Of a stretch of 64,000 nt of DNA, positions 9,660 to 64,000 are shown one piece after another. Under the pieces are notes generated by a model. It was not told the DNA's origin. It ran no database searches and saw only the letters and a list, made by a program, of their open reading frames with translations. The stretch's first letter is position 1. Every line of letters starts with the position of its first letter. Source of the stretch: an uncultured Gemmatimonadaceae bacterium (lineage in GTDB: Bacteria; Gemmatimonadota; Gemmatimonadetes; Gemmatimonadales; GWC2-71-9); NCBI GenBank assembly GCA_964647615.1, contig CAZYIV010000004.1, positions 6,236 to 70,235 of the forward strand, in the 5' to 3' direction. The translations under genes were made by a program, and so were the position numbers.

Positions 9660-12049
<2,390 letters not shown>

Positions 12050-17710: not shown

Positions 17711-17761
17711 GGGACGTGGTTCGAGGAATCGGTGGCTGTGGTTCAGGGGCGGATAAATATG

Positions 17762-22481: not shown

Positions 22482-22503
22482 CGTATCCACCCCTGGAGGA
22501 GTC

Positions 22504-33223: not shown

Positions 33224-33256
33224 GCGCCCCCCGCCAGGCACGCTGGCGGGGGGCGC
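33224..33256. terminator. Bidirectional terminator-like hairpin between convergent genes
   Basis: Perfect 14-bp stem GCGCCCCCCGCCAG/CTGGCGGGGGGCGC with a 5-nt loop. It lies between the pbpC stop (33209) and the lipoprotein stop (33275). No T-tract. Confidence 0.5.
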
Positions 33257-33274
33257 GGTGCATTCGGCGGGGGG

Positions 33275-43533: not shown

Positions 43534-43542
43534 GAGCGTCCC

Positions 43543-46062: not shown

Positions 46063-46077
46063 CTCCCGGGGCCGCCG

Positions 46078-48123: not shown

Positions 48124-48536
48124 CGCGCATCCTTCCCCTGCTGCTCCTCCTCGCCGCCTGTCAGGCCGGGACCCACACCCTCGCCGCCGACCAGGCCCAG
48201 CGGTTCCAGGCCGAGGGCGTCATCCGCCAGGCCGACGACCAGGTGTTCCGCTACACCTACTACTCACGCAGCACGCGGGGCAATCGCTGGGAGGACCGCG
48301 ACGCCTCGATCCTGGTGACGCCGCACTCGGTGTTCATCCACAAGAACGGGAAGGTGGGGCTGGACCTGACGCCGGCGAGCCGGAAGGAGAACGACGTGCG
48401 GCGGGACGGCGACCGGGTGATCATCAGCTCCGGCAGCGGGCAGAGCCGGGTGTCGTGGTCGTTCCGCCCGCCGGCGGATGCCCCCGGCTGGACCGAGGAC
48501 ATCCGCAAGGTACTGGAGGGAACCGGGGCGCCCTGA
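48120..48536 (+). CDS. Hypothetical lipoprotein
   Basis: 138 aa. ATGA overlap with the antiporter gene; lipobox LLLLAAC. Confidence 0.65.
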   Translation: MTRILPLLLLLAACQAGTHTLAADQAQRFQAEGVIRQADDQVFRYTYYSRSTRGNRWEDRDASILVTPHSVFIHKNGKVGLDLTPASRKENDVRRDGDRVIISSGSGQSRVSWSFRPPADAPGWTEDIRKVLEGTGAP

Positions 48537-48545
48537 GGGCGCCCC
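48525..48545. terminator. Palindromic hairpin spanning a stop codon between convergent genes
   Basis: GGGGCGCCC-TGA-GGGCGCCCC, a perfect 9-bp stem. The loop is the lipoprotein stop codon. The convergent permease gene ends at 48549. Confidence 0.4.
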
Positions 48546-48548
48546 GCC

Positions 48549-51041
48549 TCATTCGTAGCGCAGCGCCTGGACCGGGTCCACCTGGCTGGCACGCCGCGCC
48601 GGGAGGTAGGCGGCGGCGAGGGCCACCACCGCCAGCATCGCGAGCGAGAGCCCGAACACCACCGGGTCGTGCCCCTGCAGGCCGTAGAGCAGTGACTGCG
48701 CGGCCCGCCCGGCCCCGAGTGCCGCGACCGCGCCGGTCAGCCCGCCGATCACCAGCATGACCATCACCTGCCGCACCACCAGGGCCCGCACCCGGCCGGC
48801 ATCCGCGCCGAGCGCCATCCGCACGCCGATCTCCCGGGTGCGCTGGGCCACGGTGTAGGCCAGCACGCCGTAGAGGCCCACCGCGGCCAGCAGGGTGGCG
48901 AGTGCCGCGAACGCCGCCGACAGGATGCTGATGGTGCGGTCGAGGGAGATATTCTCCCGCACCTGCTGCGGCATGGTCTTGAGGTCCTCGATCGGGACCG
49001 ACGGATCAATGGCCTTGAGCACCGGCGGGATCGCCCGGAGCAGCTGGTCGCCCGGCAGGTTGGAGCGGATGTAGTAGTACAGGTGCCCGACGTCGGTGTC
49101 CTGCCGCCAGGGGCGGAAGAACAGCGGCGGCACCTCGTCCTTCACCTGGCTGTACTTGGCGTCCTGCACCAGGCCGACGATCTCGATGTCGAGCGAGTCC
49201 GGGCCCCGGTCGGACATGTACTTGCCGACGGCGTCCTGGCCCAGGTTGAACTTCTTCGCGAACGCCTGGTTCACCACCGCGACCTTGTGGCCGCCCTGCA
49301 GGTCCTGCAGGGTGAACTCGCGCCCCGCGACGACCGGCGTCCCGAACAGCGCGAAGTAGCCCTCGCCCACCTCGTTGTAGCGCGAGTTGTTGTCCACGTC
49401 GGGCCCCTCGGGGAAGCCCTGCACGTGCACGTCGGTGCCCCAGTTGCTCCCGGCGAGCAGCGGCACCAGGCTGGCCGAGACGGCGTTGACGCCGGGGATC
49501 GCCTCCAGCGACTCCTGGACCCGGGCGTAGAGCTGGCCCGCGCGGAGGCTGTCGTAGCCGGCGCGGCTCGGGGCAATGCTGAAGGTCACCACCTGGTCCA
49601 GCTTCACGCCCAGGTCGGTGCGGGTGACGTTCACCAGGCTCTTGAGGAAGAGGCCGGCGCAGATGAGCAGCGCCGAGGCCAGCGCGATCTGCACCGTCAC
49701 CAGCACCGCGCGGAACCGCGCCGCGCCCCGGTGCCCCAGGATCTGGCCCGCCCCGGCGCGGATGGCGGTGATGAGATCCGCCCGGGTGTTGTGGAAGGCG
49801 GGGAACAGCCCGAACAGCAGCCCGGTGGCCACCGACAGCAGTCCCGCGAACAGCAGCACCGAGGGCTGCAGCGTGAAGATCAGCGAGGACGCGGCCTCCG
49901 GTGGCACCAGCGAGGCGATGCCGTCCAGCGTCCACCGTGCCACCAGCAGGCTCGCGGTGCCCCCCATCAGCGCCAGCATCACCGCCTCGGTGAGCAGCTG
50001 CAGCACCAGCTGGCGCCGGCCCGCGCCGAGCGCCAGCCGCACCCCCATCTCGGTGGCCCGGCCGGCGCCCCGCGCCAGCAGCAGGTTGGCGATGTTGGCG
50101 CAGGCGATCAGCAGCACGATTCCGGTCACGCTGAAGAGCAGCAGCAGCGGGGTCCGCGCCTCCTTGTGGACGCTGCTCTGCCCGTGGGCCCCGGGGTTCA
50201 CCCCGACCTTCTTGGCCTTGAACCGCGCCAGCGTCGCGTCGCTCATCCCCTTCTGCAGCGGCGCCTCGACGTCGGCGAGGATCGGGGTGTAGATGCCGTT
50301 GAGCGCGGCGGAGGCCTGGTCCAGGGTGACCCCGGGCTTGAGCCGGCCGAAGAGGTACAGCCAGTACACCCGCCGGTTCTCGTAGCGGCCGAAGCTGCCG
50401 AGGGTCTCGCTCATGGTGAGCGGGACGTACACCAGCGGCCGGGAGCCGAGGGTCGTGCCCTCGAAGCCCTGCGGGGCCACGCCCACCACCTGCATGGATT
50501 TGCCGTTGATGATGAAGGTCTGCCCCAGCACCCCCGGGTCCCCGCCGAAGTGCCCCTGCCAGTAGGCATAGCTGAGCACCGCGACGTAGTTGCCGGCCAC
50601 CGGCTCGTCATCGGCGGGGCCGAGCAGCCGGCCCAGCGCCGGCCGGATGCCGAGGGTCGGGAAGTAGGAGCCGGAGACGAAGACCCCGTCGCCGGTGTGG
50701 GGCTCGTTCTTGACCGAGAAGCTGGCGTTGAAGAGCCGGTGGGCCGCCAGGCCGGTGAGGACCTTCTGTTCCCGTTCCAGGTCCCGGAACATCGGGTAGG
50801 TGAAGACCTCGTCGCAGTCGCCGGCCTGGTTGCAGGACTGGGAGCCCGGGTTGGGGCCCGGCGCGGTGAGCTGGATCAGCTCCCCCGGGTCGGGCACCGG
50901 GAGCGGCTGCAGCAGCATCTGGTCGAAGAGGGAGTAGATCGCGGCGTTGGCCCCGATCCCGAGCGCCAGCGACAGCACCGCGACCGCGGTCACGAAGGGC
51001 GTCTTGAACAGGGTACGGAAGGCGAGCTTGACGTGGCGCAT
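48549..51041 (-). CDS. ADOP-family duplicated FtsX/MacB-type ABC permease (orphan, no adjacent ATPase)
   Basis: 830 aa. N-terminus LAFRTLFKTPFVTAVAVLSLALGIGANAAIYSLFDQMLLQPLP is characteristic of the duplicated orphan permease family. Two FtsX-type 4-TM modules are present. Confidence 0.92.
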   Translation of the reverse strand: MRHVKLAFRTLFKTPFVTAVAVLSLALGIGANAAIYSLFDQMLLQPLPVPDPGELIQLTAPGPNPGSQSCNQAGDCDEVFTYPMFRDLEREQKVLTGLAAHRLFNASFSVKNEPHTGDGVFVSGSYFPTLGIRPALGRLLGPADDEPVAGNYVAVLSYAYWQGHFGGDPGVLGQTFIINGKSMQVVGVAPQGFEGTTLGSRPLVYVPLTMSETLGSFGRYENRRVYWLYLFGRLKPGVTLDQASAALNGIYTPILADVEAPLQKGMSDATLARFKAKKVGVNPGAHGQSSVHKEARTPLLLLFSVTGIVLLIACANIANLLLARGAGRATEMGVRLALGAGRRQLVLQLLTEAVMLALMGGTASLLVARWTLDGIASLVPPEAASSLIFTLQPSVLLFAGLLSVATGLLFGLFPAFHNTRADLITAIRAGAGQILGHRGAARFRAVLVTVQIALASALLICAGLFLKSLVNVTRTDLGVKLDQVVTFSIAPSRAGYDSLRAGQLYARVQESLEAIPGVNAVSASLVPLLAGSNWGTDVHVQGFPEGPDVDNNSRYNEVGEGYFALFGTPVVAGREFTLQDLQGGHKVAVVNQAFAKKFNLGQDAVGKYMSDRGPDSLDIEIVGLVQDAKYSQVKDEVPPLFFRPWRQDTDVGHLYYYIRSNLPGDQLLRAIPPVLKAIDPSVPIEDLKTMPQQVRENISLDRTISILSAAFAALATLLAAVGLYGVLAYTVAQRTREIGVRMALGADAGRVRALVVRQVMVMLVIGGLTGAVAALGAGRAAQSLLYGLQGHDPVVFGLSLAMLAVVALAAAYLPARRASQVDPVQALRYE

Positions 51042-51179
51042 CGGCGGCTCGTCGAGGGGGAGGGGACCGGGTCAGTGTTTGATCCTGCCCTGACTGCCCT
51101 TCGGGCCGCCAGGTTTCAGGTTGGACACCGTGTCACCCGGAAGGGTTGCAGCCCCCGTCCGCCCGGGGCCGCGCCGGCC

Positions 51180-51560
51180 TCAGGCCCCCGGCCCCAGCTG
51201 TTCGGCGATGGTCCGGGTCCGGTCGGTCACCACTTCGCCGGTGTGGGCGGTGGCGGCCGGCTCGAACAGCGCCAGCCAGCACTCCTCCTCCGCCACCGGG
51301 CAGTGACGGACGCCCCGCGGCACCACCACGCACTCGCCGGGATGCAGCACCACGTCGCCCTCCTCGAACCGGATCCGCAGGCTGCCGCGCAGCACCAGGA
51401 ACAGCTCATCCTCCCGCTCGTGCTGGTGCCAGATGAACTCGCCCTGGACCCGCACCACCTTCACGTACTGGCCGTTGAGCTCGGCCACGACGCGCGGCGA
51501 CCACTGGTCGGTGAGTTCGGCGATGCGCCGCTCGAGGTGGATCGGCGTGGGGAGGGACAT
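51180..51560 (-). CDS. Cupin domain protein
   Basis: 126 aa from ATG 51560. WHQHEREDELFLVLRG...GECVVVPRGVRH cupin motifs. The longer ORF to 52133 overlaps the next gene. Confidence 0.85.
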   Translation of the reverse strand: MSLPTPIHLERRIAELTDQWSPRVVAELNGQYVKVVRVQGEFIWHQHEREDELFLVLRGSLRIRFEEGDVVLHPGECVVVPRGVRHCPVAEEECWLALFEPAATAHTGEVVTDRTRTIAEQLGPGA

Positions 51561-51595
51561 GCGGCGCGCTCCAGGGAGGGGGGCTGGGGCCAAAG

Positions 51596-52015
51596 CTAGG
51601 CGGGGCCATCCCCGCGGTCCATTGCCGCGTCTTCCTCCCGCAGCGCGGTGAGCCAGGCGTGCCACTCTTCCGGGGCCTCGGGCTGTGCCGCGATCGCGGC
51701 TTCCGCCAGTCCCCGCACCCGCCGCCGGGTGGCGAGCGCGGCGGCGGCGTTCCCCTCGGCCTGCTCCAGCGCGGCGCGGAGCGCCAGGAGGCGCGCCAGC
51801 CCGTAGAGCCGGTCCGGGTCGCGGATCAGGGCCACGGCGCTCTCGACATCGAGCCGGGGGAGCAGCGCGTTGAGCGGGCCGAGGTGCTGGGCCAGGGCAT
51901 CCTCGATGGCCTCCCGTGCCTCGACCAGGTCCACCGGACCGGGGCCGTAGAGCAGCCGCGCGATCACCCGCGACACCTGTTCGATCCAGCGCAGCACCAC
52001 GTCGCGCTGGGTCAT
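51596..52015 (-). CDS. Hypothetical helical protein
   Basis: 139 aa from ATG 52015. The alternative GTG 52111 would give a GTGA overlap with the upstream gene. No family recognised. Confidence 0.5.
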   Translation of the reverse strand: MTQRDVVLRWIEQVSRVIARLLYGPGPVDLVEAREAIEDALAQHLGPLNALLPRLDVESAVALIRDPDRLYGLARLLALRAALEQAEGNAAAALATRRRVRGLAEAAIAAQPEAPEEWHAWLTALREEDAAMDRGDGPA

Positions 52016-52107
52016 GCGAACAGTTTCTCCGAGCTCGGGCACCGGTGCACCCCGGGAAGGTGGGTCCCCCTCCGGGCCGGGGCAAGCGGCGCGCGGCCGA
52101 TGGCGGC

Positions 52108-52530
52108 TCACTCCACCTCGGGCGCCCCCACATCGGGCTGGCCCTGGCGCAGCTCCTCGCGTGCCTGCCGCGCGAGCCGCGCGTAGCGCTCGCGGATGGC
52201 GTCGAGCTCCCGTTCCTCCAGCTCCTCCAGGTCGAGCAGCGCGTTGTGCGCCCCCTGCGTCGCCCGCAGCAGCTCGTCCAGCTTCACCTGCACCGCCTCG
52301 GCGTCGCGGTTCTGGGTGTTCTGGATCAGGAAGACCATGAGGAACGTGATCACCGTGGTGCCGGTGTTGATCACCAGCTGCCAGGTGTCACTGAAGCCGA
52401 AGAGCGGTCCGGTCGCGAGCCACAGCGCGACGATCAGCACCGCGGTCACGAAGGCCACGGGCCGGCCGGCCCAGCGGGACATTCCCTTCGCGAACCGGGA
52501 GAAACGGGAACGGGGCTGCGGGGCGAGCAT
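52108..52530 (-). CDS. Low-affinity iron permease family (Fet4-like) small membrane protein
   Basis: 140 aa. FSDTWQLVINTGTTVITFLMVFLIQNTQNRD is the typical core of this family. Confidence 0.85.
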   Translation of the reverse strand: MLAPQPRSRFSRFAKGMSRWAGRPVAFVTAVLIVALWLATGPLFGFSDTWQLVINTGTTVITFLMVFLIQNTQNRDAEAVQVKLDELLRATQGAHNALLDLEELEERELDAIRERYARLARQAREELRQGQPDVGAPEVE

Positions 52531-52718
52531 GACAAGACCCTCGGCAAGGGCGACAGGGCCAAGCTAGTGCCCGCCGGCTGAAGTCCCGATGAGCGGGGGA
52601 TGACGTCCGCGGCCGGAACGTGACCGCCCCCTGACACAGCCGCCTTTGACGGCCCGTCGTGCGAGGGGCAACTTCGTGAGTTGCCGCGCCGAACGCATCT
52701 TCTCCGAGGAGGTCACCC

Positions 52719-53486
52719 ATGCCGACCGGGCCCCGCCAGCCAGGCGAGTTCTGCTGGTTCAACTTGCTCACCGCCGACCCCGAGGCGGCGAAGACGTTCT
52801 TTTCCGGCGTGCTGGGTTGGACCTACGGGGAGATCCCGGGGATGGGGTGGCTCATCAAGGTGGGAGGCCAGGACGTCGGGGGGCTGTTCGACCTGTACGG
52901 GCCCGGCACGCCCCCCGGGCTGCCACCCGCCATCACGGTGATGATCCAGGCCGCCAGCGCCGACGCCACGGCCGATGCGGTCCGCGCCAGCGGTGGGCGC
53001 GCGGCCCCGCCGTTCGACGTGATGCAGAACGGGCGGATGGCCGTCTGCCACGACCCGGCGGGCGCGGCGTTCGACCTGTGGCAGCCGCTGGCCCAGCCGG
53101 GCACCACGGTGGACAGCCGCGCCACCGGGGCCCCGAGCTGGTTCGAGCTGCTCACCACCGACGTCGAGGGGGCGCGGACGTTCTACCGCCAGGTGTTCGG
53201 GTGGGCGTCGGAGACCATGCCGATGCCCGGACTCGACTACACCGTGTTCCGGCGGGGGAACGAGCCGCTCGCCGGGATGATGGCGATCACGCCGGCGATC
53301 GGCGGCATCCCGCCGTGCTGGTGCACCTACTTCACCGTGGAAGCCGTGGACCGGACCGTCGCGGAGGCGGTACGGGCGGGCGGCACCGTGGTGGTGCCGG
53401 CGGAGGATGTGCCGGGGGTGGGGCGGTTCGCGGGGCTGCTCTCGCCGCAGCAGGTGTTCTTCTTCGTGATCACCTACGCCGGCTGA
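52719..53486 (+). CDS. VOC (glyoxalase/bleomycin-resistance) family protein, two-domain
   Basis: 255 aa with two repeats beginning FCWFNLLTADPEAAKTFFSGVLGW and SWFELLTTDVEGARTFYRQVFGW. GAGGAGG lies upstream of the ATG. Confidence 0.88.
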   Translation: MPTGPRQPGEFCWFNLLTADPEAAKTFFSGVLGWTYGEIPGMGWLIKVGGQDVGGLFDLYGPGTPPGLPPAITVMIQAASADATADAVRASGGRAAPPFDVMQNGRMAVCHDPAGAAFDLWQPLAQPGTTVDSRATGAPSWFELLTTDVEGARTFYRQVFGWASETMPMPGLDYTVFRRGNEPLAGMMAITPAIGGIPPCWCTYFTVEAVDRTVAEAVRAGGTVVVPAEDVPGVGRFAGLLSPQQVFFFVITYAG

Positions 53487-53502
53487 GGCGGGGCCGCCTC
53501 AG
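53483..53502. terminator. Palindromic hairpin spanning both stop codons of convergent genes
   Basis: CTGAGGCGG-GG-CCGCCTCAG, perfect 9-nt arms. It contains the TGA of the VOC gene and the TCA (complement of the stop) of the GNAT gene. Confidence 0.4.
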
Positions 53503-53933
53503 CTGGCGGGGAGGCGGAAGGTGAACATCGCCGGCGGGTCGGTGAGCCGCCGGCCGCCGATGGCCTCGTAGAGCTTCATCGCGCCCTGGTTGGCGGGGCT
53601 GGTGAGCACCCACGCCTCGCGGCAGCCAAGCCGCTGGCCCTCCGCGAAGAGCGCCTGGAGCATCTTCTGGCCCAGCCCCTGGCGCCGGTGGGTCGGCGCC
53701 ACCCCCACCTCGTTCACCCACAATTCGGCCGGCTTGTCGGGGTGGATGTAGTGCACCGCCGAGGCAAAGCCCACCACCCGACCGCCATCCACCGCAACGG
53801 CGAGGTGGTGGCGCGGGTCGCGCAGGAATTCCTCCGTCAGCTTCAGGTCCACGTCGTGGTCGAACACGTCGTCGGCGACCTGGCGGAGGACGGCGCTGTC
53901 GCTGGCGCCCAGCAGGCGGATGGTGACGCTCAC
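53499..53933 (-). CDS. GNAT family N-acetyltransferase
   Basis: 144 aa. Acetyl-CoA motif VAPTHRRQGLGQKMLQAL. Confidence 0.9.
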   Translation of the reverse strand: MSVTIRLLGASDSAVLRQVADDVFDHDVDLKLTEEFLRDPRHHLAVAVDGGRVVGFASAVHYIHPDKPAELWVNEVGVAPTHRRQGLGQKMLQALFAEGQRLGCREAWVLTSPANQGAMKLYEAIGGRRLTDPPAMFTFRLPAS

Positions 53934-54022
53934 CGGATGACCTCGTGCAGAGTGGCGGGGCCGGGGGAACTGGCCCGTAAGGTGGAGTCCCCGGGAACTG
54001 CGGGCAAGGCGCGGGCGGCCGG

Positions 54023-54559
54023 TCAGGCGCCGGGGTCGGGATCGTCCCCGTCCGCCCCCGCGGCGCGCCAGGCGGCGACCTGGGCCTCGGTGGCGGGGCG
54101 GACCTTGAGCACCCGTTCCTTCCGGACGCTGACGGTCCCGGGCGGGGCGCCCCCGGGCTTGGAGACATGCCGGGCCTCGGTGCAGGTCACCGGCACGGTC
54201 CCGGCGCCGCGGGCCTTGCTGTGGTAGGCGGCGAGGGAGGCCGCCGTTTCGATCACGTCCCGGCCGGGGGCGGCCGGGCCGGGCACCCGGAGGACCACAT
54301 GGCTCCCGGGCATCCCCCGGATGTGGAACCAGAGGTCGGCGGGGTGGGCCAGCCGGAGGCTCAGCCGGTCGTTGGCCTGGTCGGTCCGGCCGGCGAGGAC
54401 CACCCAGTCCCCGGGGAGGCGGTAGGCGAGGATGTCGGGCAGGCGGGCTCCCGGGGCTGGCGGCCGGACGGGGGTGGCCGGCGTCGGGTCTAATGATAGC
54501 AGGCGCCGCGGCGGGGCCGGGTGGCCAAGGCGAAGGTCTCGTTCCCGATTGTGGTGCAT
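54023..54559 (-). CDS. DUF814 / NFACT-R-type RNA-binding domain protein
   Basis: The C-terminal part WVVLAGRTDQANDRLSL...DLWFHIRGMPGSHVVLR...AASLAAYHSKAR matches the DUF814 pattern. Start ATG 54559 chosen. The 870-aa ORF extension upstream is antisense to susC-like and is rejected. Confidence 0.7.
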   Translation of the reverse strand: MHHNRERDLRLGHPAPPRRLLSLDPTPATPVRPPAPGARLPDILAYRLPGDWVVLAGRTDQANDRLSLRLAHPADLWFHIRGMPGSHVVLRVPGPAAPGRDVIETAASLAAYHSKARGAGTVPVTCTEARHVSKPGGAPPGTVSVRKERVLKVRPATEAQVAAWRAAGADGDDPDPGA

Positions 54560-54692
54560 ATCACGCCAATTCAGTGGCGCATTATCGGCCTGTCGCTGTA
54601 GCGCGGCGAGAGGTCCAAGCGGATCCCCGCCAATTCTGTAACTCCATGGAATATCGTTACCCTGCGCCATGCCTGTGGCTTGCGAACCACTC

Positions 54693-54721
54693 TTGACGCG
54701 CCCCCAAATCTGTGCCACAAT
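54693..54721 (+). promoter_or_regulatory. Candidate sigma-70-type promoter (TTGACG-N17-CACAAT)
   Basis: TTGACG at 54693-54698 and CACAAT at 54716-54721 with a 17-nt spacer. The imperfect inverted repeat GTGCCAC-aatc-GTGTCAC overlaps the -10. Confidence 0.4.
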
Positions 54722-54994
54722 CGTGTCACCAACGCGGGGGTTAGAGCCAGCGACCCGCTCGCTGCCACGGCTCCACGGCCACCGCGCTTCCTTCTTGAGA
54801 GAACACGCATTGTCGGCCCCCGGCGGCATTGTCCCCACCGGCCCGGGCTGGCGCCCAGCCATCACCGTGCCGGTGATGCGCGCAGGCCGCCCTGGCTCCC
54901 CCGGATCCGCGCAAGGCTCCCTTGTCCGGAACACTTCGGCGCCCAACGCCTGGCCGCAGGCGTTCGGGCTGTCGTCGCTCGCTGGCTTTTTCCC

Positions 54995-55027
54995 GCGCCC
55001 CGGCCCTGCAGTTGCCGGGGCGCTTTT
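54995..55027 (+). terminator. Terminator/attenuator-like hairpin in the susC-like leader
   Basis: Perfect 10-bp stem GCGCCCCGGC/GCCGGGGCGC, 9-nt loop, followed by TTTTCGC. It ends 30 nt before ATG 55058. Confidence 0.55.
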
Positions 55028-55057
55028 CGCAGTCCGTACCTGAAAGGACCCCCGCAT

Positions 55058-58033
55058 ATGAAGTGGCTTCGCTTCTGTCTGGGTGTGCTGGTCACGACAC
55101 TCGCCGCCGGGCCGCTCGTGGCGCAGGAACCCACGGGTGCCATCCGCGGCACCATCACCGACGAGACCTCGCAGCGGCCGGTGGCCGGCGCGACGGTCAC
55201 CTACGGCGGCCGGACCACGGTGAGCCGGGCCGACGGCGTGTACCACATGCTCGCGGTGCCAGCCGGCAGCGGCACCCTGCGCATCCGAGTGATCGGCTTC
55301 GCCCCGAAGGACCTCGAGGTGCAGGTGGACGCCGGCACCACGCTGCAGCAGGACGTGGCGCTCACTCCGCAGGCGGTGGACCTGTCCGAAATGGTCGTGG
55401 TGGGCTACGGCGAACAGGCCGCCGGCAACATCATCGGCGCCGTCACCAATGTCACCTCGGAGAACTTCAACACCGGCCGCATCATCACCCCGACCGAGCT
55501 GATCCGCAGCAAGACGGCCGGCGTGCAGGTGGTGGACAACAACGAGCCGGGCGGCGGGACCACCATCCGGATCCGCGGCGCAACCTCCATCAATGCCAGC
55601 AGCGACCCGCTGATCGTGGTGGACGGTGTGCCGCTCGGCACCGGCTCGGGCAGCGGGATCAGCGTGGGCCGTGACGCGCTCAACTTCATCAACTCCGAGG
55701 ACATCGAGAGCATCACGGTGCTGCGCGACGCCTCGGCGGCGGCGATCTACGGCGCCAACGCCGCCAACGGCGTGGTGCTGATCACCACCAAGCGGGGCAC
55801 CGGCCGTACTTCGCCGCGGTTCGAGTACAGCGGCAGCTTCTCGGCCTCCACCGTGACCAAGCTGCCCTCGATGCTCAACGCGGCCCAGTTCCGGGCGGCG
55901 GTGACCCAGTACGCGCCGCGCAACGTGGCCCAGCTGGGCACCACGAACACCAACTGGTTCGACCTGGTGGACCGCACCGGGTACGGCCAGGAGCAGAACT
56001 TCGCCTTGTCGGGCGGCGGCAACAGCAACAACTACCGCCTGTCGGCCAACTACCTGGACCAGAAGGGCGTCATCGGCGGCACCCAGGCCCAGCGGCTGGC
56101 GCTGGGGCTCAACTACAACCAGCTGCTGCTGGGCGACCGGCTGAGCATCCAGACCAGCCTGCGCGGCTCGCGGCAGCGGGACAACTTCACCCCGGGCGGC
56201 GTGGTCTCCAACGCGGCGCAGATGGGCCCCACCCAGCCGGTGAGGGACACGGCCTCGACCACCGGCTTCTTCAACTGGACCGGCGGCATCCAGTCGGCCG
56301 ACAACCCGGTCGAGATCCTCAACCTGGCCAAGGATGAGGCGACCACCTACCGGGGCATCGGCAGCGTGCAGGGGGGCTACCAGCTTCCCTGGATCCAGGG
56401 GCTCGAGGCCAACCTCCGGCTCGGCTTCGACGTGACCCGGGCCGACCGGGTCCAGTTCAGCCCCAGCGTGCTGCACAGCGAGATCAAGAACTCGCAGCAC
56501 GGCGGCAACTACTTCCGGCAGAACCCGACGCAGCAGAACGGCCTGCTGGAGGCGTTCCTGAACTACGCCATCCCGCAGTCGATCGGCCCGGGTGCGCTCG
56601 ACCTCACGGCCGGCTACTCGTTCTCCAAGTCGCACAACGAGTTCCCCACGGTGCAGGCGGAAGGCCTCAGCACCGACCTGCTGGGGGTCAACGGCGTGCC
56701 CTCGGCCAAGACCACCACCGCCCGGCTGTTCGTGAACGACTCGCGGCTGGTCTCGTGGTTCGGGCGGGCGAACTACAACGTGAACGACAAGTACCTGGCC
56801 GCCTTCACCCTGCGGCGCGATGGCTCATCCCGGTTCGGCGCCGCCAACCAGTGGGGCACCTTCCCCTCGGTCGCGGTGGCGTGGCGTGTCTCCGAGGAGC
56901 CGTTCCTCAAGGGCCGCTGGGGGCTGTCGGACCTGAAGCTCCGCGGTTCCTGGGCCCGGACCGGCAACCAGTCGTTCTCGGACTACCTGTTCCAGTCCAC
57001 CTACACCGTGGGTGACGCGCAGGCGCAGTACTGGATGGGCAACGGCTTCGTCACCACCATCCGGCCCAGCGCGGTGGATCCGAACATCAAGTGGGAAGCC
57101 ACCCGCTCCTTCGACCTGGGGCTGGACTACGGCTTCAACAACCAGCGCGTCACCGGTGCCATTGACTGGTACGACAAGAAGACCACGGACCTGATCTTCT
57201 CGGTCCCCGCGGCGGCCGGCACGGTGCCGGGCGACTTCGTGACCACCAACATCGGCAGCATGCGGAACCGCGGCATCGAGTTCAGCCTGAGCGCCAAGGT
57301 GCTGCAGGGCGGCGGCGACCCGAACGGGCTGCACTGGACCGCGGACATCACCGCGGCGCACAACAAGAACGAGCTGCTCACCATCACCCCCTACGGCGGC
57401 GCTGCCCAGCAGGTCCTGGTCGGCGGCATCGCCGGCGGCGTGGGCAACACCATCGAGGTGCTGCGCCCGGGCGTGCCGATCAACTCGTTCTTCGTGTTCA
57501 AGCAGCTGTACCAGAACGGCAAGCCGCTCGAGGGCCAGTACAAGGACTTCAACAACGACGGCATCATCAACGACAGCGACAAGCGGCCGTTCCACGATCC
57601 GGCCCCGAAGTGGATCCTGGGCCACTCGTCCTATGTGACCTACGGCAAGCTGGACCTGAGCTTCACCCTGCGGGCCTACCTGGGGAACTACGTGTACAAC
57701 AACGTGGCCTCCAACCTGGGCACCTACTCGGAGGTGACGCGCGGCTCGCCCTACAACCTGCACAGCTCGGTGCTGGAGACCGGCTTCCAGACCGCCCAGT
57801 ACTTCTCCGACTACTACGTGGAGAAGGCGTCGTTCCTGCGGATGGACAACATCACCGTCGGCTACTCCTTCGACCTGCAGGGGCAGGCGGCGCGGGTGTA
57901 CGGTACGGTGCAGAACGCGTTCACCATCACCGGCTACAGCGGGGTGGACCCGACCGCCGGCCTCAACGGCATTGACAACAACCTCTATCCGCGCTCCCGC
58001 ACCTTCCTGGGCGGGCTGAGCCTGCGGTTCTAA
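55058..58033 (+). CDS. SusC/RagA-family TonB-dependent outer-membrane transporter
   Basis: 991 aa from ATG 55058. Signal peptide; carboxypeptidase-regulatory-like domain (IRGTITDETSQRPVAGATVTY). TonB-box/plug region VVVGYGEQ...ITVLRDASAAAIYGANAANGVVLITTKRG; C-terminal ...LSLRF. Confidence 0.95.
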   Translation: MKWLRFCLGVLVTTLAAGPLVAQEPTGAIRGTITDETSQRPVAGATVTYGGRTTVSRADGVYHMLAVPAGSGTLRIRVIGFAPKDLEVQVDAGTTLQQDVALTPQAVDLSEMVVVGYGEQAAGNIIGAVTNVTSENFNTGRIITPTELIRSKTAGVQVVDNNEPGGGTTIRIRGATSINASSDPLIVVDGVPLGTGSGSGISVGRDALNFINSEDIESITVLRDASAAAIYGANAANGVVLITTKRGTGRTSPRFEYSGSFSASTVTKLPSMLNAAQFRAAVTQYAPRNVAQLGTTNTNWFDLVDRTGYGQEQNFALSGGGNSNNYRLSANYLDQKGVIGGTQAQRLALGLNYNQLLLGDRLSIQTSLRGSRQRDNFTPGGVVSNAAQMGPTQPVRDTASTTGFFNWTGGIQSADNPVEILNLAKDEATTYRGIGSVQGGYQLPWIQGLEANLRLGFDVTRADRVQFSPSVLHSEIKNSQHGGNYFRQNPTQQNGLLEAFLNYAIPQSIGPGALDLTAGYSFSKSHNEFPTVQAEGLSTDLLGVNGVPSAKTTTARLFVNDSRLVSWFGRANYNVNDKYLAAFTLRRDGSSRFGAANQWGTFPSVAVAWRVSEEPFLKGRWGLSDLKLRGSWARTGNQSFSDYLFQSTYTVGDAQAQYWMGNGFVTTIRPSAVDPNIKWEATRSFDLGLDYGFNNQRVTGAIDWYDKKTTDLIFSVPAAAGTVPGDFVTTNIGSMRNRGIEFSLSAKVLQGGGDPNGLHWTADITAAHNKNELLTITPYGGAAQQVLVGGIAGGVGNTIEVLRPGVPINSFFVFKQLYQNGKPLEGQYKDFNNDGIINDSDKRPFHDPAPKWILGHSSYVTYGKLDLSFTLRAYLGNYVYNNVASNLGTYSEVTRGSPYNLHSSVLETGFQTAQYFSDYYVEKASFLRMDNITVGYSFDLQGQAARVYGTVQNAFTITGYSGVDPTAGLNGIDNNLYPRSRTFLGGLSLRF

Positions 58034-58072
58034 GACGCCAACCGACGAACCTCTGCGAAGGGACGAAGCGAT

Positions 58073-59641
58073 ATGAACCGCCCAATGCGAACTCTGATCG
58101 CCGGGACCGTGGCCCTGCTGGGCCTCGGCCTTGGCGGCTGCACCGACCCGGCCGTGGCGCCGGTGAGCACCGTCAGCACGGAGAAGATCTTCAAGGACCC
58201 GTCGTCGTATCAGGCGTTCCTGGCCAAGATCTACGCCGGATTCTCCACCACCGGGCAGCAGGGCCCGGCGGGAAACACCGACATCCAGACCATCAATGAC
58301 GAGGGCTTCTCGCAGTACATGCGCCTCTACTGGGAGAGCCAGGAGCTGCCGACCGACGAGGCGGTGCTGGCCTGGGATGACGGCTCGGTGCAGGACTTCA
58401 ACGGCCAGAACTGGAGCGCCGGCAACTCCTTCCTGGGCGCGATGTTCTCCCGCATCTACCTGGAAGTGACCTGGACCAACGAGTTCCTGACGCAGACCTC
58501 CGACGCGGCACTCTCCTCCCGCGGCGTGAGTGCCGCCCTCAGGACCCAGATCCAGCAGTTCCGGGCCGAGGCGCGCTTCCTCCGGGCGCTGGCGTACTGG
58601 CACGGCGTGGATCTCTTCGGGCCGATCCCGATCGTGACCGTCAACAACCCGACCCCGCCCAAGCAGAACACCCGGGCCGAAGTGTACGACTTCATCGTGA
58701 GCGAGCTGACGGCCATCCGGCCGGAGCTGCCGCTGGCCGGGCCGGGCAACTACGGCCGGGCCACGCAGGAAGCGGCCTCGATGCTGCTGGCCAAGGTGTA
58801 CATGAACGCCGAGGTCTACACCGGCACGCCGCACTACGACCAGGCGCTGGCCGAGCTCACCAACGTGATCAATGGACCGTTCTCCATTGACCCGAGCTAT
58901 GCCCACCTGTTCCAGGCGGACAACAACACCTCGCCCGAGATCATCTTCCCGATCGTGCAGGACGGGATCCACTCGAAGAGCTACGGCGGCACGACCTTCC
59001 TCATCCATGCCTCCTGCGGCAATCAGATGGACCCTGCGGCGTACGGCGTGGACGGCTGCTGGTGGGGGCTGCGGCTCAAGCCCGAGGCGTATAATCTCGT
59101 CGTGGGCGACCCGCGGGCCTCGTACCTGTTCACCGACAGCCAGACCGTGGCGATCGCCGACCTGAAGGCGTTCAGCCAGGGCATCGCGGCGCCCAAGTTC
59201 ACCAACCTCAAGTCCGGCGGCGGGCACGGCTCCGACCTGGGCTTCCCGGACACCGACTTCCCGCTGTTCCGCCTGGGCGACGCCTACCTGATGTACGCCG
59301 AGTGCTTCCTCCGGGGCGGTGGCGGGTCCCAGCAGCAGGCGCTGACTTACGTCAACGACCTGCGCGAGCGGGCCTTCGGCGATACCACCGGCAACATCAC
59401 CGCCGGCCAGCTGACCCTGCCGTTCATCCTGAATGAGCGGGCCCGCGAGCTGCTCTGGGAAGCCCACCGCCGGACCGACCTTGTTCGGTACGGTCTGTTC
59501 ACCGGTGGCGGCTACATCTGGTCCTGGAAGGGCGGTCACCAGCAGGCTGGGGAATCCACCGACGGGCACCTGGACCTGTACCCGATCCCAGCCACCCAGC
59601 TGTCAGCCAACCCGTTCCTGAAGCAGAACCCGGGCTACTAG
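58073..59641 (+). CDS. SusD/RagB-family outer-membrane lipoprotein
   Basis: 522 aa. Lipobox LGLGLGGC. It lies immediately downstream of the SusC-like gene, with TPR-like SusD hallmarks (FLRALAYWHGVDLFG, FRLGDAYLMYAEC, ERARELLWEAHRRTDLVRYG). Confidence 0.92.
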   Translation: MNRPMRTLIAGTVALLGLGLGGCTDPAVAPVSTVSTEKIFKDPSSYQAFLAKIYAGFSTTGQQGPAGNTDIQTINDEGFSQYMRLYWESQELPTDEAVLAWDDGSVQDFNGQNWSAGNSFLGAMFSRIYLEVTWTNEFLTQTSDAALSSRGVSAALRTQIQQFRAEARFLRALAYWHGVDLFGPIPIVTVNNPTPPKQNTRAEVYDFIVSELTAIRPELPLAGPGNYGRATQEAASMLLAKVYMNAEVYTGTPHYDQALAELTNVINGPFSIDPSYAHLFQADNNTSPEIIFPIVQDGIHSKSYGGTTFLIHASCGNQMDPAAYGVDGCWWGLRLKPEAYNLVVGDPRASYLFTDSQTVAIADLKAFSQGIAAPKFTNLKSGGGHGSDLGFPDTDFPLFRLGDAYLMYAECFLRGGGGSQQQALTYVNDLRERAFGDTTGNITAGQLTLPFILNERARELLWEAHRRTDLVRYGLFTGGGYIWSWKGGHQQAGESTDGHLDLYPIPATQLSANPFLKQNPGY

Positions 59642-59668
59642 GCCCGGGCAGTACCACACGGTCGCGTT

Positions 59669-59702
59669 CCGCGGCTCCGCCGTCTCGGCGACGGAGCCGC
59701 GG
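59669..59702 (+). other. Intercistronic stem-loop between susD-like and amylase genes
   Basis: 11-bp arms CCGCGGCTCCG/CGGAGCCGCGG with a 12-nt interior, followed by TTCGTGT. Confidence 0.45.
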
Positions 59703-59729
59703 TTCGTGTCCGGCCTCCCGGATCGTCCG

Positions 59730-61325
59730 ATGTCCCAGTCTCCCCTGCGTCTCCTCCTCCCCTGCCTCGTGGTGCCGGCCCTGCTGGCCTGCGGCGGGGG
59801 CAACGACCAGTCCACGGGGCCGGGCGGGGGTGGCACACCACCCCCCGGCCGCCCCACCCTCCCCTCCAGCTACCGCCCCACGGGGCACATGGCGGCGGGT
59901 GACGTGGCGGTGCACCTGTTCGACTGGCCCTGGCCCGATATCGCCACCGAGTGCGAGAACGTGCTCGGCCCCGCCGGAGTCCGGGCGGTGCAGGTCTCGC
60001 CGCCCAACGAGCACAGCATCACCCCGACTCACGACTGGAGCGAACGCTACCAGCCGGTGAGCTACAGCCTGGCCCGGAGCCGCTCGGGGACGGGCACCGA
60101 GTTCGCCGACATGGTCACCCGCTGCCATGCCGCGGGGGTGGACATCATCGTGGACGCGGTGATCAACCACATGACCAACTTCCCGAGCCCGGGAGTGGGC
60201 AGCAACGGCACCGCCTACTCCAAGTACGACTATCCCGGGCTCTGGACCCAGGCTGACTTCCACTCGCCCTGCACGGTCACCAACTACCAGAGCGCCGCCA
60301 ACGTGCAGGACTGCGAGCTGCTCGGCCTGCCCGACCTCAACACCGGTCTGCCGGCCGTACGGCAGACCCTCGCCAACTATCTCCTGGCCCTGATGGACGT
60401 GGGGGTCGCCGGATTCCGGATTGATGCCGCCAAGCACATCCAGCAGGTGGAACTGGACGACATCCTCGCCCGGGTCAACCAGGCCCGCACCGCGGCGGGC
60501 AAGTCGCTGCCGTACGTCTATCTCGAGGTGATCGGCGGGAACGGCGAGGCCCTGGGCCCCGGCGACTACTTCGGCGAGGGGTACGCCTCGGGTGGCGCGG
60601 CGGACATCACCGAGTTCACGGTGACCGGCGTGGGCAACAAGTTTCTCAATGCCAACGGGGAGCACATCAGCCAGCTGAACCCGACCGGCCCCCCGGGTGC
60701 CCGGTTCTCCGAGACCGCCTGGGGTCTCATGCCGAGCAACAAGGCGGTGGTGTTCCTGGAGAACCACGACACCCAGCACAACTGCGGGCTGAGCTACCGC
60801 GACGGCGACCGCTTCCGGCTGGCCAACGTCTGGCTGCTGGCCCAGCCGTATGGCTACCCGCTGATCCTCTCCAGCTTTGCCTTCAGCTGCCCGGGCGGGA
60901 ACAGCATGGGCCCCCCCTCCGACGGCAACGGCTGGACCCTGCCGGTCACCTGCGCCACCAGCCTGGAGACGGCGGTGGTGGGGCAGTTCGTCTGCGAGCA
61001 TCGCGACCCGGCCATCCTCACCATGGTCCGCTTCCGGAAGCTCGTCGCCGGCACCCCGGTGACCCACTGGTGGGACAACGGGGCCAATGCCATCGCCTTT
61101 GCGCGCGGGAGCGTGGGCTTCGTGGCGATCAACCGCGAGCCCGACAGCCTCAACGTGACCCTCCCGACCGGGCTGGTGCCCGGCACCTACTGCGACCGCA
61201 TTTCCGGCGGCCCCGGGGCGGGGAGCTGCGTGGGGACCACGCTGGTGGTGGATTCCACCGGGCAGCTGCCGCTCCAGCTCCCGCCGATGACGGCCATCGC
61301 GATTGACTCGGCCACGCGGATGTAG
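59730..61325 (+). CDS. Alpha-amylase (GH13), lipoprotein
   Basis: 531 aa from ATG 59730 (GTG 59706 also possible). Lipobox PALLAC. GH13 regions DAVINH, GFRIDAAKH, EVIG, FLENHD. Confidence 0.93.
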   Translation: MSQSPLRLLLPCLVVPALLACGGGNDQSTGPGGGGTPPPGRPTLPSSYRPTGHMAAGDVAVHLFDWPWPDIATECENVLGPAGVRAVQVSPPNEHSITPTHDWSERYQPVSYSLARSRSGTGTEFADMVTRCHAAGVDIIVDAVINHMTNFPSPGVGSNGTAYSKYDYPGLWTQADFHSPCTVTNYQSAANVQDCELLGLPDLNTGLPAVRQTLANYLLALMDVGVAGFRIDAAKHIQQVELDDILARVNQARTAAGKSLPYVYLEVIGGNGEALGPGDYFGEGYASGGAADITEFTVTGVGNKFLNANGEHISQLNPTGPPGARFSETAWGLMPSNKAVVFLENHDTQHNCGLSYRDGDRFRLANVWLLAQPYGYPLILSSFAFSCPGGNSMGPPSDGNGWTLPVTCATSLETAVVGQFVCEHRDPAILTMVRFRKLVAGTPVTHWWDNGANAIAFARGSVGFVAINREPDSLNVTLPTGLVPGTYCDRISGGPGAGSCVGTTLVVDSTGQLPLQLPPMTAIAIDSATRM

Positions 61326-61392
61326 CCCGCCGCGGGGGCGGCGCCCCCGCCCCCCGCGCCGGGCCGACCCACCTACCGAAGGAGCACCACCG

Positions 61393-62745
61393 ATGCGGAC
61401 CCAGCTCGCGGCCGTGGTCACCGGGATCGCCCTCGAGGCCGGCACCCTCGCCGCACCGCACCCGCTCGCCGCCCAGGACGCCTCCTGGGTGGCGCGGAGC
61501 GCGCTCTACGAGGTCTTCATCCAGGATTTCTCCACCCGGGGGGATCTCGAGGGCGTCCGGGAGGGGCTGGCCCGGATCGAGGCCACCGGCGCCAACGTGG
61601 TCTGGCTGATGCCGGTGCATCCGATCGGGGTGAAGGAACGGAAGGGCGTCCTGGGGTCGCCCTACGCCGCCCAGGACTACCGGGCCATCAACCCGAGCTA
61701 CGGCACCGCCGCGGACTTCAAGCGGCTGGTGGACGCCGCCCACACCCGCGGCCTGAAGGTCATACTCGACTGGGTCCCCGACCACACCGCGGTGGACCAC
61801 CCCTGGGTGACCCAGCACCCCGACTGGTACTTCCACACCGCCGACGGTGGGCTCGCCACCCCGCGTGACACCGACGGCAAGCTCACCGACTGGACCGACG
61901 TGGCCCAGCTCGACTACGGCAACCCGGCGGTGCGGCAGGAGATGATCGCCACCATGCGCTGGTGGCTGACCGAGTTCGGGCTGGACGGCTTCCGGGTGGA
62001 CGTCGCGGGGTTCGTGCCCTACGACTTCTGGAGCGAGGCGATCCCCCAGCTCCGGGCCAGCGTGCCGCGGCGGCTGCTGCTGCTCGCCGAATGGGGCGAC
62101 ACCGAGCTCAACCGCCGCGGCTTCGACCTGGTCTACGCGTGGGACTCCTACAAGCGGGTGAAGGCGGTGTGGCGGGGCGACAGTGCCGCCGGCTTCATCC
62201 CCGGCGAGATCGCCGACCTGGTGGTGATGCCCCCGGGCGGGATGAAGATGCGCTTCAGCACCAATCACGACGAAACCGCGTGGGATGCGCCGCCCGTCAA
62301 GATCTTCGGCGGGGGCCCCGGGGCCCGGGCGGGCTTCGCGGCGATGGCCTTCCTGCCGGGGCGGCCGCTGCTCTACAACGGGCAGGAGGTCGAGAGCGGG
62401 CAGCAATTGCCGCTGTTCGAGCGGGAGCTGATCCAGTGGAACCAGCCCCACGCCGAGGCGGCGCGGGCCTTCTACCGGAAGGTGATGCAGCTCTGCCGCA
62501 CCGAACCCGACCTGCTCGGCGCCGACCTCGCCGACGTGGAGACCAGCGCCCCCGCCGACGTGATCGCCTTCCGGCGCGGGGATCTGGTGGTGCTGGTGAA
62601 CAGCCGCGATCGCGGGATGATGGTTTCCCTGCCGGGGACCGACGTCGCCGGATCCCGGAACCTGCTCACCGGCCGGACCCTCCGGGGCAACAGCCTGCGC
62701 CTGGCGCCCTACGGCGTGGTGCTGCTCAAGCCCCGGGGCAAGTAG
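61393..62745 (+). CDS. GH13 alpha-amylase family glycosidase, secreted
   Basis: 450 aa from ATG 61393, with AAGGAG upstream. Regions ILDWVPDH, GFRVDVAGF, LLAEWG, FSTNHDE. Confidence 0.9.
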   Translation: MRTQLAAVVTGIALEAGTLAAPHPLAAQDASWVARSALYEVFIQDFSTRGDLEGVREGLARIEATGANVVWLMPVHPIGVKERKGVLGSPYAAQDYRAINPSYGTAADFKRLVDAAHTRGLKVILDWVPDHTAVDHPWVTQHPDWYFHTADGGLATPRDTDGKLTDWTDVAQLDYGNPAVRQEMIATMRWWLTEFGLDGFRVDVAGFVPYDFWSEAIPQLRASVPRRLLLLAEWGDTELNRRGFDLVYAWDSYKRVKAVWRGDSAAGFIPGEIADLVVMPPGGMKMRFSTNHDETAWDAPPVKIFGGGPGARAGFAAMAFLPGRPLLYNGQEVESGQQLPLFERELIQWNQPHAEAARAFYRKVMQLCRTEPDLLGADLADVETSAPADVIAFRRGDLVVLVNSRDRGMMVSLPGTDVAGSRNLLTGRTLRGNSLRLAPYGVVLLKPRGK

Positions 62746-62747
62746 TC

Positions 62748-64000
62748 ATGCCGGCCACCATCCGCCCTCTGGCGGCGCTGGTCGTGCTGGGCACGCTGGC
62801 GGCGGCTCCCGCCGCGGCGCAGCGCCAGCGGCTCAGCCTCGACGCCGGGTGGCAGTTCACCCTCGGCGACCCGGCGGGCGCCGAGGTGCCCGGCTTCGAC
62901 GCCCGAAACTGGCGCACCCTCGACCTGCCACACGACTGGAGCATCGAGGGCACACCCGCGGAAGATGCACCGGGGGGCGGCCGGATCGGGTTCTTCCCGA
63001 CCGGTATCGGCTGGTACCGGAAGGTGTTCCGGCTGCCGCGCACTGCGAAGGGCCAGCAGGTCTCGGTCGAGTTCGACGGGATCTACATGAACAGCGACGT
63101 GTGGCTCAACGGCGTGCACCTCGGCCAGCGGCCGTACGGCTACATCAGCCTCGCCTACGACCTCACGCCGCACCTCAAGCCGGGCGACAACGTGCTCGCG
63201 GTGCGGGTGGACAATTCGGCCCAGCCCAGCTCCCGGTGGTACACCGGCAGCGGCATCTACCGCCACACCTGGCTCACGATCACCGACCCGCTGCACCTGG
63301 AACGCTGGGGGACCTGGGTCGCCACGCCGAGCGCCGACACCACCCGCGGGGTGGTGGTGGTCCGCGGCGGTGTGCGGAATGACGGGGTGCGTGCCCGCGA
63401 GGCCACACTCCGGTGGCTGCTGCTCGATCCCCAAGGCGCCGAGGTGGGGCGGGTGGAGCAGCCGTTCTCGCTCGCGCCCGGCAGCGACACCACCCTGGAG
63501 CGGGCGGTGGAACTGACCCGCCCCCGGCTCTGGTCCCCGGCGGACCCGGCGCTCTACACCCTGCGCTCCGAGGTGGTCGAGGGGCGCCGCGTCACCGATG
63601 CGACCGAGACGACCTTCGGAGTGCGCACCGCCGCCTTCGACGCCGATCGCGGCTTCCTGCTCAACGGCGAGCGGGTCAAGCTCCGCGGGGTGAACCTGCA
63701 CCACGAGGCCGGCGCGCTCGGCGCGGCGGTGCCGGAGCGGGTGTGGGAGGTCCGGCTGCAGGCACTCCAGGCGATGGGCGTCAATGCCATCCGCACCTCG
63801 CACAATCCCCCCGCGCCCGAGTTCCTCGACCTGTGCGACCGCCTGGGCCTCATGGTGATGGACGAGGCCTTCGACGAGTGGACCCTCGGCAAGGTGCCGG
63901 CGGGCTACCACAACTACTTCGACGAGTGGGCCGACCGGGACGTGACCGACATGGTGCGCCGGGACCGGGGCCACCCCTCGGTGGTGCTGTGGAGCGCCGG
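62748..64000 (+). CDS. Glycoside hydrolase family 2 (beta-galactosidase-like), 5' partial, continues past the window
   Basis: Not in the ORF track because it is open-ended. My translation from ATG 62748 gives MPATIRPLAALVVLGTLAAAPAAAQRQRLSLDAGWQFTLGD...WRTLDLPHDWSIEG...GVNAIRTSHNPPAPEFLDLCDRLGLMVMDEAFDEW. Confidence 0.9.
   Translation, partial: MPATIRPLAALVVLGTLAAAPAAAQRQRLSLDAGWQFTLGDPAGAEVPGFDARNWRTLDLPHDWSIEGTPAEDAPGGGRIGFFPTGIGWYRKVFRLPRTAKGQQVSVEFDGIYMNSDVWLNGVHLGQRPYGYISLAYDLTPHLKPGDNVLAVRVDNSAQPSSRWYTGSGIYRHTWLTITDPLHLERWGTWVATPSADTTRGVVVVRGGVRNDGVRAREATLRWLLLDPQGAEVGRVEQPFSLAPGSDTTLERAVELTRPRLWSPADPALYTLRSEVVEGRRVTDATETTFGVRTAAFDADRGFLLNGERVKLRGVNLHHEAGALGAAVPERVWEVRLQALQAMGVNAIRTSHNPPAPEFLDLCDRLGLMVMDEAFDEWTLGKVPAGYHNYFDEWADRDVTDMVRRDRGHPSVVLWSA

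Follow-up and report, generated by a model that had tools for sequence, protein, structure and literature searches.

How is starch uptake switched on in a soil bacterium that encodes no recognisable carbohydrate regulator near its uptake genes? The question is raised by a stretch of 64,000 nucleotides (nt) of DNA from an uncultured Gemmatimonadaceae bacterium (positions 6,236 to 70,235 of contig CAZYIV010000004.1, assembly GCA_964647615.1), hereafter referred to as the window. The stretch contains a susC-like gene (55058-58033) for a TonB-dependent receptor, followed on the same plus strand by a susD-like gene (58073-59641) and two genes of the GH13 alpha-amylase family (59706-61325 and 61303-62745). 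From the Pfam domains of its products susC-susD-GH13-GH13 (55058-62745) is a predicted starch or alpha-glucan utilisation operon. SusC/SusD loci are known to be under the control of proteins such as SusR, hybrid two-component systems or pairs of extracytoplasmic function (ECF) sigma and anti-sigma factors, and in Bacteroides also by antisense small RNAs. To our knowledge nothing is known of their control in the Gemmatimonadota, an abundant and little-studied soil phylum. No gene for a carbohydrate regulator is found among the proteins of the 64-kb window. The susC-like gene is instead preceded by a gene-free gap of about 500 nt or more (the 54500-55057 region), in which an original prediction, made from the sequence of the window, had placed a promoter, a structured leader of about 300 nt and a terminator-like hairpin. 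Judged by comparison of orthologs, promoter, leader and hairpin are a single conserved unit that is tied to this operon and is under selection. It is tentatively proposed that this unit is a leader that controls alpha-glucan uptake in cis by attenuation, a reading to which we give somewhat less than even weight.

The comparison rests on 114 fetched loci with susC orthologs, of which 27 came from the GTDB collection (one genome per species), 80 from JGI metagenomes and seven from protein look-ups. The close relatives of the susC locus are all Gemmatimonadales, and about 24 of these loci, termed group A, encode SusC proteins of 59-81% identity and share the upstream architecture of the window. 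The evidence that goes beyond chance comes from the conservation among these orthologs, not from single-sequence statistics. Aligning the orthologous leaders had been suggested at the outset, and the alignment reveals that some 24 Gemmatimonadales loci share promoter, leader and hairpin as a conserved unit that runs from the -35 box through the leader to a GC hairpin with a T-rich tail 32-41 nt before the ATG. An nhmmer profile of the leader matches solely upstream of susC, with E = 1e-13 to 1e-34 at loci outside the profile-building set, and it finds no further copy elsewhere in the window or in the 114 fetched loci. The upstream neighbour genes vary in identity and strand from locus to locus and the element therefore belongs to susC. 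In every relative at least 400 nt upstream of susC are free of genes, and in the group-A loci that are long enough the gene order after the leader is constant, with susC and susD followed by one or both GH13 genes, all of which are predicted to be under the control of the leader.

The unit opens with a sigma-70-like promoter, TTGACG-N17-CACAAT (54693-54721, plus strand), that motif scanning recovers where the original prediction had put it. Its -35 hexamer TTGACG (54693-54698) is directly preceded by a conserved CyC and is separated by a 17-nt spacer from the -10 hexamer CACAAT (54716-54721). It is the sole sigma-70-like match in 44001-64000, a region in which 0.5 matches are expected. A TTGACG-like -35 element, a spacer of 16-17 nt and an nAnnnT -10 element are present in 23 of the 24 group-A loci. 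The -35 hexamer reads TTGACG in 20 of these, TTGACT in two and TTGTCG in one, the -10 hexamer is AATATT, CACAAT, CAAAAT or GATATT, and the spacer measures 17 nt in 20 loci and 16 nt in three. The ortholog promoters lie 252-414 nt (median 347) before the susC ATG, and the alignment is readable from CyCTTGACG onward, not upstream of the -35 box. Transcription would start near 54728, which predicts an untranslated leader of about 330 nt (54728-55057, plus strand).

At its downstream end the leader carries the feature with the clearest signature of an RNA structure. As originally described, the hairpin at 54995-55027 (plus strand) consists of a perfect 10-base-pair (bp) stem, formed by the arms GCGCCCCGGC (54995-55004) and GCCGGGGCGC (55014-55023) around a loop of 9 nt, and of a TTTT tract at 55024-55027, and it proves to be conserved at the RNA level. 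Folding gives an energy of -24 kcal/mol and z = -3.05 in the window, and across orthologs the local folding z averages -2.9, with 13 of 19 values below -2. In 27 distinct sequences 78.5% of the stem positions are paired, as against 30-54% when the partner columns are offset, and each of the seven core pairs is formed in 19 to 24 of them. Changes on both sides of a pair were counted in 13 cells, a number that none of 500 shuffles reached. At the second core pair 15 sequences have U·G, five have C-G and three have U-A, and this alternation of a wobble with Watson-Crick pairs identifies an RNA helix on the plus strand, because the other strand would form a C·A mismatch. The loop between the arms, which has no conserved bases, ranges from 3 to 12 nt across orthologs, and with such variable spacing the hairpin is not a DNA operator of fixed spacing. 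The tail 3' of the stem averages 4.2 T per 8 nt in the 27 sequences (1.6 expected); on the minus strand there is no T run at the hairpin.

The pairing was also assessed by a self-versus-cross test, in which the 5' half of each domain is matched with its own 3' half and with those of the other orthologs, the difference being judged by permutation. This test is free of register and alignment and was run domain by domain. The terminator arms give z = -3.9 to -5.1, and z = -3.9 with p <= 0.0002 in the full set of 25 sequences.

Directly 5' of the stem lies the pyrimidine block UUUUUCCC (54987-54994, plus strand), which is conserved as UUyCCC in the alignments, and the start codon follows 34 nt past the stem and 30 nt past the T run, at 55058, in line with the short distance noted initially. 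Because only 34 nt separate hairpin and ATG there is no room for another promoter and every susC transcript must pass the hairpin. The distance is 32-41 nt in most loci, even where the stem is wholly different (L086, L076, L087). A terminator scan of the window omits the hairpin, which has a loop of 9 nt and a tail of only 4 T. Convergent gene ends in the same window, at 33226-33258 (14 bp) and 48526-48546 (9 bp), have perfect GC hairpins that practically lack a T run, and the terminators of this high-GC genome may be of a type poor in U tracts. Since these real convergent ends have even less of a T run, the leader hairpin is at least as terminator-like as they are. The TGAAAGGA box occurs once in the window. 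A repeated element was considered and rejected: a loose form of the arms (CCGG, 5-16 nt, CCGGRG) occurs 75 times in the window against 58 expected, and 2 of 100 shuffles reach 75, which is not significant.

The leader had been called non-coding, and this stands as far as conservation is concerned. Two open reading frames (ORFs) do cross it in the window, a 124-amino-acid (aa) ATG ORF (54669-55043) and an in-frame extension of susC from a TTG at 54680. No ORF is conserved in the ortholog leaders, where ATG ORFs differ in position, frame and sequence and one locus (L009) has none, and the frames of the leader ORFs relative to the conserved blocks disagree between orthologs. A protein read from the ATG at 55058 begins with a normal signal peptide, after which come the CarboxypepD_reg, Plug and barrel domains. 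A leader-peptide attenuator was rejected as there is no conserved short ORF, the shared AGAF being the conserved terminator arm read in one frame. In another locus a 238-aa ORF without a Pfam match has been called in public annotation over the leader on the opposite strand (L108:284-1000, minus strand), likely a spurious call in GC-rich non-coding DNA. The leader had been likened to no known RNA family, and Rfam 15 bears this out, with no match at the gathering threshold in the whole window, none at E <= 10 in 53500-55500 and none at E <= 1 on the leaders of seven ortholog loci. Upstream of the promoter of a further locus (L114:316-499) a long hairpin matches several microRNA precursor models weakly (E = 0.002-0.9), almost certainly by chance on a long inverted repeat.

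The remaining leader is less uniform, and the description of the whole as structured holds in part. The 5' end of the predicted RNA folds into a stem-loop domain, D1 (54733-54786, plus strand), with an outer stem CGCGG/CCGCG (54733-37 with 54782-86), a middle stem GAGCC/GGCUC and an apical hairpin CAGCGA/UCGCUG (54748-53 with 54759-64). The same three-tier hairpin is predicted in nearly all orthologs with differing apical sequences, and the pairing test gives z = -2.9 and p = 0.003. Counted on the alignment the outer stem is 72% paired, with no excess over column shuffles, as the composition of the columns explains it. An internal hairpin, H3 (54860-54878, plus strand), is a perfect 8-bp stem in the window (CAUCACCG-UGC-CGGUGAUG, z = -3.4) that is replaced by other stems in orthologs, such as CCGAUCGC/GCGAUCGG in L021 and UCCGAUCGC/GCGGUCGGA in L009, and the pairing test yields z = -2.9 to -3.0 with p = 0.001-0.003 (25 sequences: z = -2.9, p = 0.003). 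Reversal of the 3' half removes the signals of D1 and H3; the shuffled controls have a small negative bias, for which reason the support for both is called moderate.

Upstream of the terminator region lies hairpin H5 (54941-54969, plus strand), with a 12-bp stem, a GCCG loop, an energy of -22.7 kcal/mol and z = -4.6 in the window. This is the hairpin first reported as a 6-bp stem, CGCCTG-gccg-CAGGCG; it is real, and those arms (54947-54952 and 54957-54962) are the top of the longer stem. Many orthologs have a variable hairpin at this position, and the pairing test is weak (p = 0.03 with 19 sequences; z = -1.2, p = 0.11 with 25). For H2 and H4 the test gives z = -1.2, p = 0.12 and z = +0.4, p = 0.64, respectively. 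Between the hairpins lie conserved and apparently unpaired blocks, which include CCGCGCUUCC and UGAGAnACnGCAUyGUCGG (54782-54816, plus strand), UGAGAnACnGCAUCGUC, a C-rich block, UUGUCCGG and UUUCCC. The A-rich linker has no folding signal (z = +0.2) and none in the pairing test (z = 0.0, p = 0.49). RNAalifold returned no consensus structure on the MAFFT alignments, neither for the whole leader nor for its sub-domains, as the variable stems do not line up in register. Taken together the comparative data point to the terminator-like hairpin as the sole strongly supported structure, with D1 and H3 moderately supported, and the remainder of the leader is, on the same data, conserved sequence without demonstrable structure.

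Conservation in the region is highest between hairpin and ATG. This stretch holds the translation-initiation region (55030-55057, plus strand), conserved in orthologs, with a Shine-Dalgarno-like GAAAGGA at 55042-55048; CUGAAAGGAC is almost invariant across group A, and GAGAGGAC occurs in orthologs farther away. These distant orthologs (56-62% identical over the 420 N-terminal residues used in the search) have remodelled leaders. One set has leaders of about 150 nt in which a short hairpin, UCGCGGAGCAC-loop-GUGCCCGCUU(U), lies some 60-110 nt before the ATG (L031, L033, L039, L046, L049, L051, L064, L083, L086, L087, L102) and is followed by the same kind of GC hairpin; this arrangement may be a minimal version of D1 plus terminator. 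A second set has leaders of about 65 nt without a hairpin and with CCTTGACAC about 65 nt before the ATG (L040, L054, L057-L060, L071, L085, L100 and others). In this second set a divergent gene of about 100 aa, with a product that begins MRYDAFRKRL, starts about 100 nt upstream of the susC ATG. The hairpin and the ribosome-binding stretch CUGA(A/G)AGGAC are of greater age than the long leader.

How such a leader would operate can be proposed from its anatomy. A housekeeping-type promoter at 54693-54721 would start transcription near 54728, and the first 270 nt or so of the RNA would comprise the stem-loop domain D1, one or more other conserved hairpins and several conserved blocks left unpaired. 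The transcript would then run, 34 nt short of the start codon, into a strong GC hairpin with a U-rich stretch after it, and this hairpin would act as an intrinsic terminator and halt most transcripts by default. When alpha-glucan is available, read-through into susC would be permitted by an effector that targets either the leader upstream or the stem with its conserved sequence. This effector would most likely be an RNA-binding protein or another trans-acting factor, and less likely a small molecule. Comparative sequence analysis establishes the conservation of the unit, the RNA-level hairpin on the plus strand, the lack of coding potential and the exclusive linkage to the operon. The anatomy behind the original suggestion of an attenuator, riboswitch or small RNA is upheld, from the promoter some 330 nt upstream through the non-coding leader to the terminator-like hairpin, and the functional side of that suggestion stays a proposal.

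Several observations weigh against attenuation. The role of the hairpin as a terminator, the conditional read-through and the kind of effector are inferred, and the transcript ends are predictions. The U run is poor (2-3 T) in L007, L052, L002 and L089, and the tail in the window has only 4 U. No conserved antiterminator emerges, as the best partner of the 5' arm falls at leader positions that differ between orthologs, in a search of low power since that arm hardly varies. An all-against-all scan of segments (686 pairs) leaves the terminator arms alone after correction for multiple testing, with no second pairing. H2, H4 and H5 lack covariation support in the pairing test with 25 sequences. 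The folding energy of the whole leader, striking in the window (z = -3.4 to -4.9), averages only -1.3 in orthologs against -0.4 in coding controls, and was dropped as evidence because the orthologs are unremarkable. In some distant orthologs (L044, L029) the hairpin apparently lies near a putative promoter, read by eye, and leaves no space for an upstream sensor. Finally, the stem sequence is conserved far beyond the needs of a plain terminator and its spacing from the ATG hardly varies; these features suit a role in mRNA stability or in translation just as well as they suit termination. A simple terminator leaves both features unexplained, and this keeps such a role, or recognition of the stem by a protein or ligand, in play.

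Of the rivals considered, a stem-loop for stability or translation ranks first, followed by a riboswitch, a small RNA and DNA operators. The first of these is unlikely, and the likeliest of the four. Here the hairpin would protect the 5' end of a processed susC mRNA or position the ribosome-binding region, and the leader would be processed or dispensable. Such a role is suggested by the nearly constant 32-41 nt to the ATG, which survives the exchange of the stem in L086, L076 and L087, by the strong conservation of the stretch between hairpin and ATG, by the retention of the hairpin in clades with short or different leaders and by a weak signal that the tail pairs with the Shine-Dalgarno region of its own sequence (p = 0.01). 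A protective stem-loop does not, however, need a conserved T-rich tail directly after the stem, and the conserved promoter and 270 nt of upstream leader would be left unexplained. Less likely is a metabolite riboswitch, in which the leader or the terminator stem would be an aptamer for a breakdown product of alpha-glucan or a carbon-status signal and the ligand would decide whether the terminator forms. The succession of promoter, long conserved leader, terminator and gene is the classic layout of such elements, variable hairpins alternate with conserved unpaired blocks, D1 and H3 give covariation-type signals (p about 0.003 each), no protein regulator is encoded nearby among the window proteins and the unusual conservation of the stem sequence recalls aptamers said to be embedded in terminators, such as HMP-PP (thiS). 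Against this, no Rfam class matches, no multi-helix junction with significant covariation can be defined, RNAalifold gives no result on the MAFFT alignments and the leader is remodelled between clades to lengths of 330, 150 and 65 nt, which would be unusual for an aptamer. We also know of no riboswitch for a neutral sugar. A new riboswitch class that directly senses an alpha-glucan-derived sugar or a carbon-status metabolite, in place of SusR-type regulators in this Gemmatimonadales clade, is regarded as slightly less probable still.

An independent small RNA of about 300 nt, running from the conserved promoter to the hairpin and acting in trans with susC expression as a by-product of read-through, is a distinctly poor candidate. 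It would account for a non-coding transcript that has a conserved promoter to itself and a 3' end resembling a terminator, and other bacteria are known to make small RNAs from 5' untranslated regions (UTRs) through premature termination. The element is, however, always directly upstream of susC and co-oriented with it, the 34-nt gap excludes a separate susC promoter, no copy is found elsewhere in the window or in the 114 fetched loci and no conserved accessible seed region was identified. Control at the DNA level, the most doubtful of the four, would make the conserved blocks operators for transcription factors (roadblock repressors or activators) and the hairpin a palindromic operator. The arms are indeed conserved in sequence and nearly palindromic (CTCCGGCC/GGCCGGGG) and several conserved blocks have no RNA structure signal. 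An inter-arm spacing that varies from 3 to 12 nt nevertheless rules out a dimeric operator, the conserved T·G would be a mismatch in a DNA palindrome and is a good wobble in RNA that switches to T-A or C-G, and wholly different stems occupy the same place in L086, L076 and L087. Attenuation stays the preferred, and still tentative, reading.

The surroundings of the unit contain further features. A small divergent gene on the minus strand, which starts at about 54500-54560 and ends at 54023, encodes a protein with an NFACT-R (DUF814) RNA-binding domain according to Pfam, and is probably unrelated to the leader because it is not a conserved neighbour at other loci. Between this gene and the susC promoter lies a direct repeat, CGCCAATTC(A/T)GT, in two copies 64 nt apart (54564-54578 and 54628-54642). 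A 16-nt inverted repeat pairs 54546-54561 with 54708-54723; one arm overlaps the -10 box CACAAT and the other contains CACAAT on the minus strand, where it might serve a promoter of the divergent NFACT-R gene. The region upstream of the promoter cannot be aligned between orthologs. At the other end of the operon the two GH13 ORFs as listed share 23 nt (61303-61325), and the last gene runs into the 3' end of a convergent ORF of 421 aa (62709-63974, minus strand) without a Pfam match. The rest of the 64-kb window encodes a GNAT acetyltransferase, a glyoxalase, an iron permease, a MacB-type transporter, arginine genes and several hybrid histidine kinases. The latter, with PAS, GAF and Hpt domains, are abundant, and the window also has a sigma-54 activator and an alpha-2-macroglobulin/PBP1C gene pair. 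Together these genes lie at 3988-9683, 15245-17761, 22312-24042, 25057-33209 and 43537-46062, and none of them is linked to the leader.

The conserved leader, its built-in terminator-like hairpin and the lack of a neighbouring regulator gene together point to control of starch uptake at the RNA level. The unit would represent a previously undescribed family of cis-regulatory leaders in one group of Gemmatimonadales soil bacteria, and as a compact element of about 330 nt it is open to reporter fusions, Term-seq and ligand screens. Direct binding of a sugar, if true, would fill the long-noted gap of a riboswitch for neutral carbohydrates, and a riboswitch here would be the first RNA sensor to control a SusC/SusD polysaccharide utilisation locus. 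Should the leader not bind sugar, it would be one more leader of the attenuator type and mainly of use for annotation, where gene callers already put spurious ORFs on it.

A literature search found no paper on leaders in the Gemmatimonadota or on riboswitch-type control of polysaccharide utilisation loci. The nearest RNA regulators by target are the DonS-type RNAs of Bacteroides polysaccharide utilisation loci, which are 78-128 nt long, divergent (antisense) to susC and repress it, and long 5' UTRs have been noted in Bacteroides thetaiotaomicron (PMC7366714). Like the DonS family the leader is an RNA-level element at the 5' end of a susC homologue. It is not a DonS-like antisense RNA, as it measures about 330 nt and lies in cis, and both its promoter and the wobble pairs of its hairpin are on the sense strand.

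Control of a carbohydrate operon by a leader terminator, as proposed here, is shared with the BglG/LicT-RAT (ribonucleic antiterminator) and ANTAR-type systems, in which sugar operons are controlled by a leader terminator and an RNA-binding protein has its target in a conserved RNA element overlapping this terminator. The leader does not resemble a RAT or ANTAR target, since it has no RAT-like sequence and no paired small hexaloop hairpins, its loops measuring 3 to 12 nt. No gene for a BglG/LicT or ANTAR antiterminator is found among the window proteins, and we know of neither family in the Gemmatimonadota. In the hydroxymethylpyrimidine pyrophosphate (HMP-PP), or thiS-motif, riboswitch the aptamer is reportedly embedded in the terminator stem, and the likeness lies in a terminator stem directly upstream of the regulated gene that is conserved in sequence and not just in pairing. 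The leader has no sequence or Rfam similarity to this riboswitch, and a long conserved leader precedes its stem.

In overall layout the unit is like the intrinsic-terminator attenuators and the expression platforms of riboswitches, where a promoter and a long non-coding leader are followed by a GC hairpin with a U-rich tail some tens of nt before the first gene of an operon for catabolism or transport. It differs from them in having no demonstrable alternative pairing, leader peptide or known aptamer. What it has in common with intrinsic-terminator attenuators is a GC-rich stem-loop conserved at the RNA level with a U tract directly 3' of the stem, and what sets it apart from them is the unusual conservation of the stem sequence and of its distance from the start codon.

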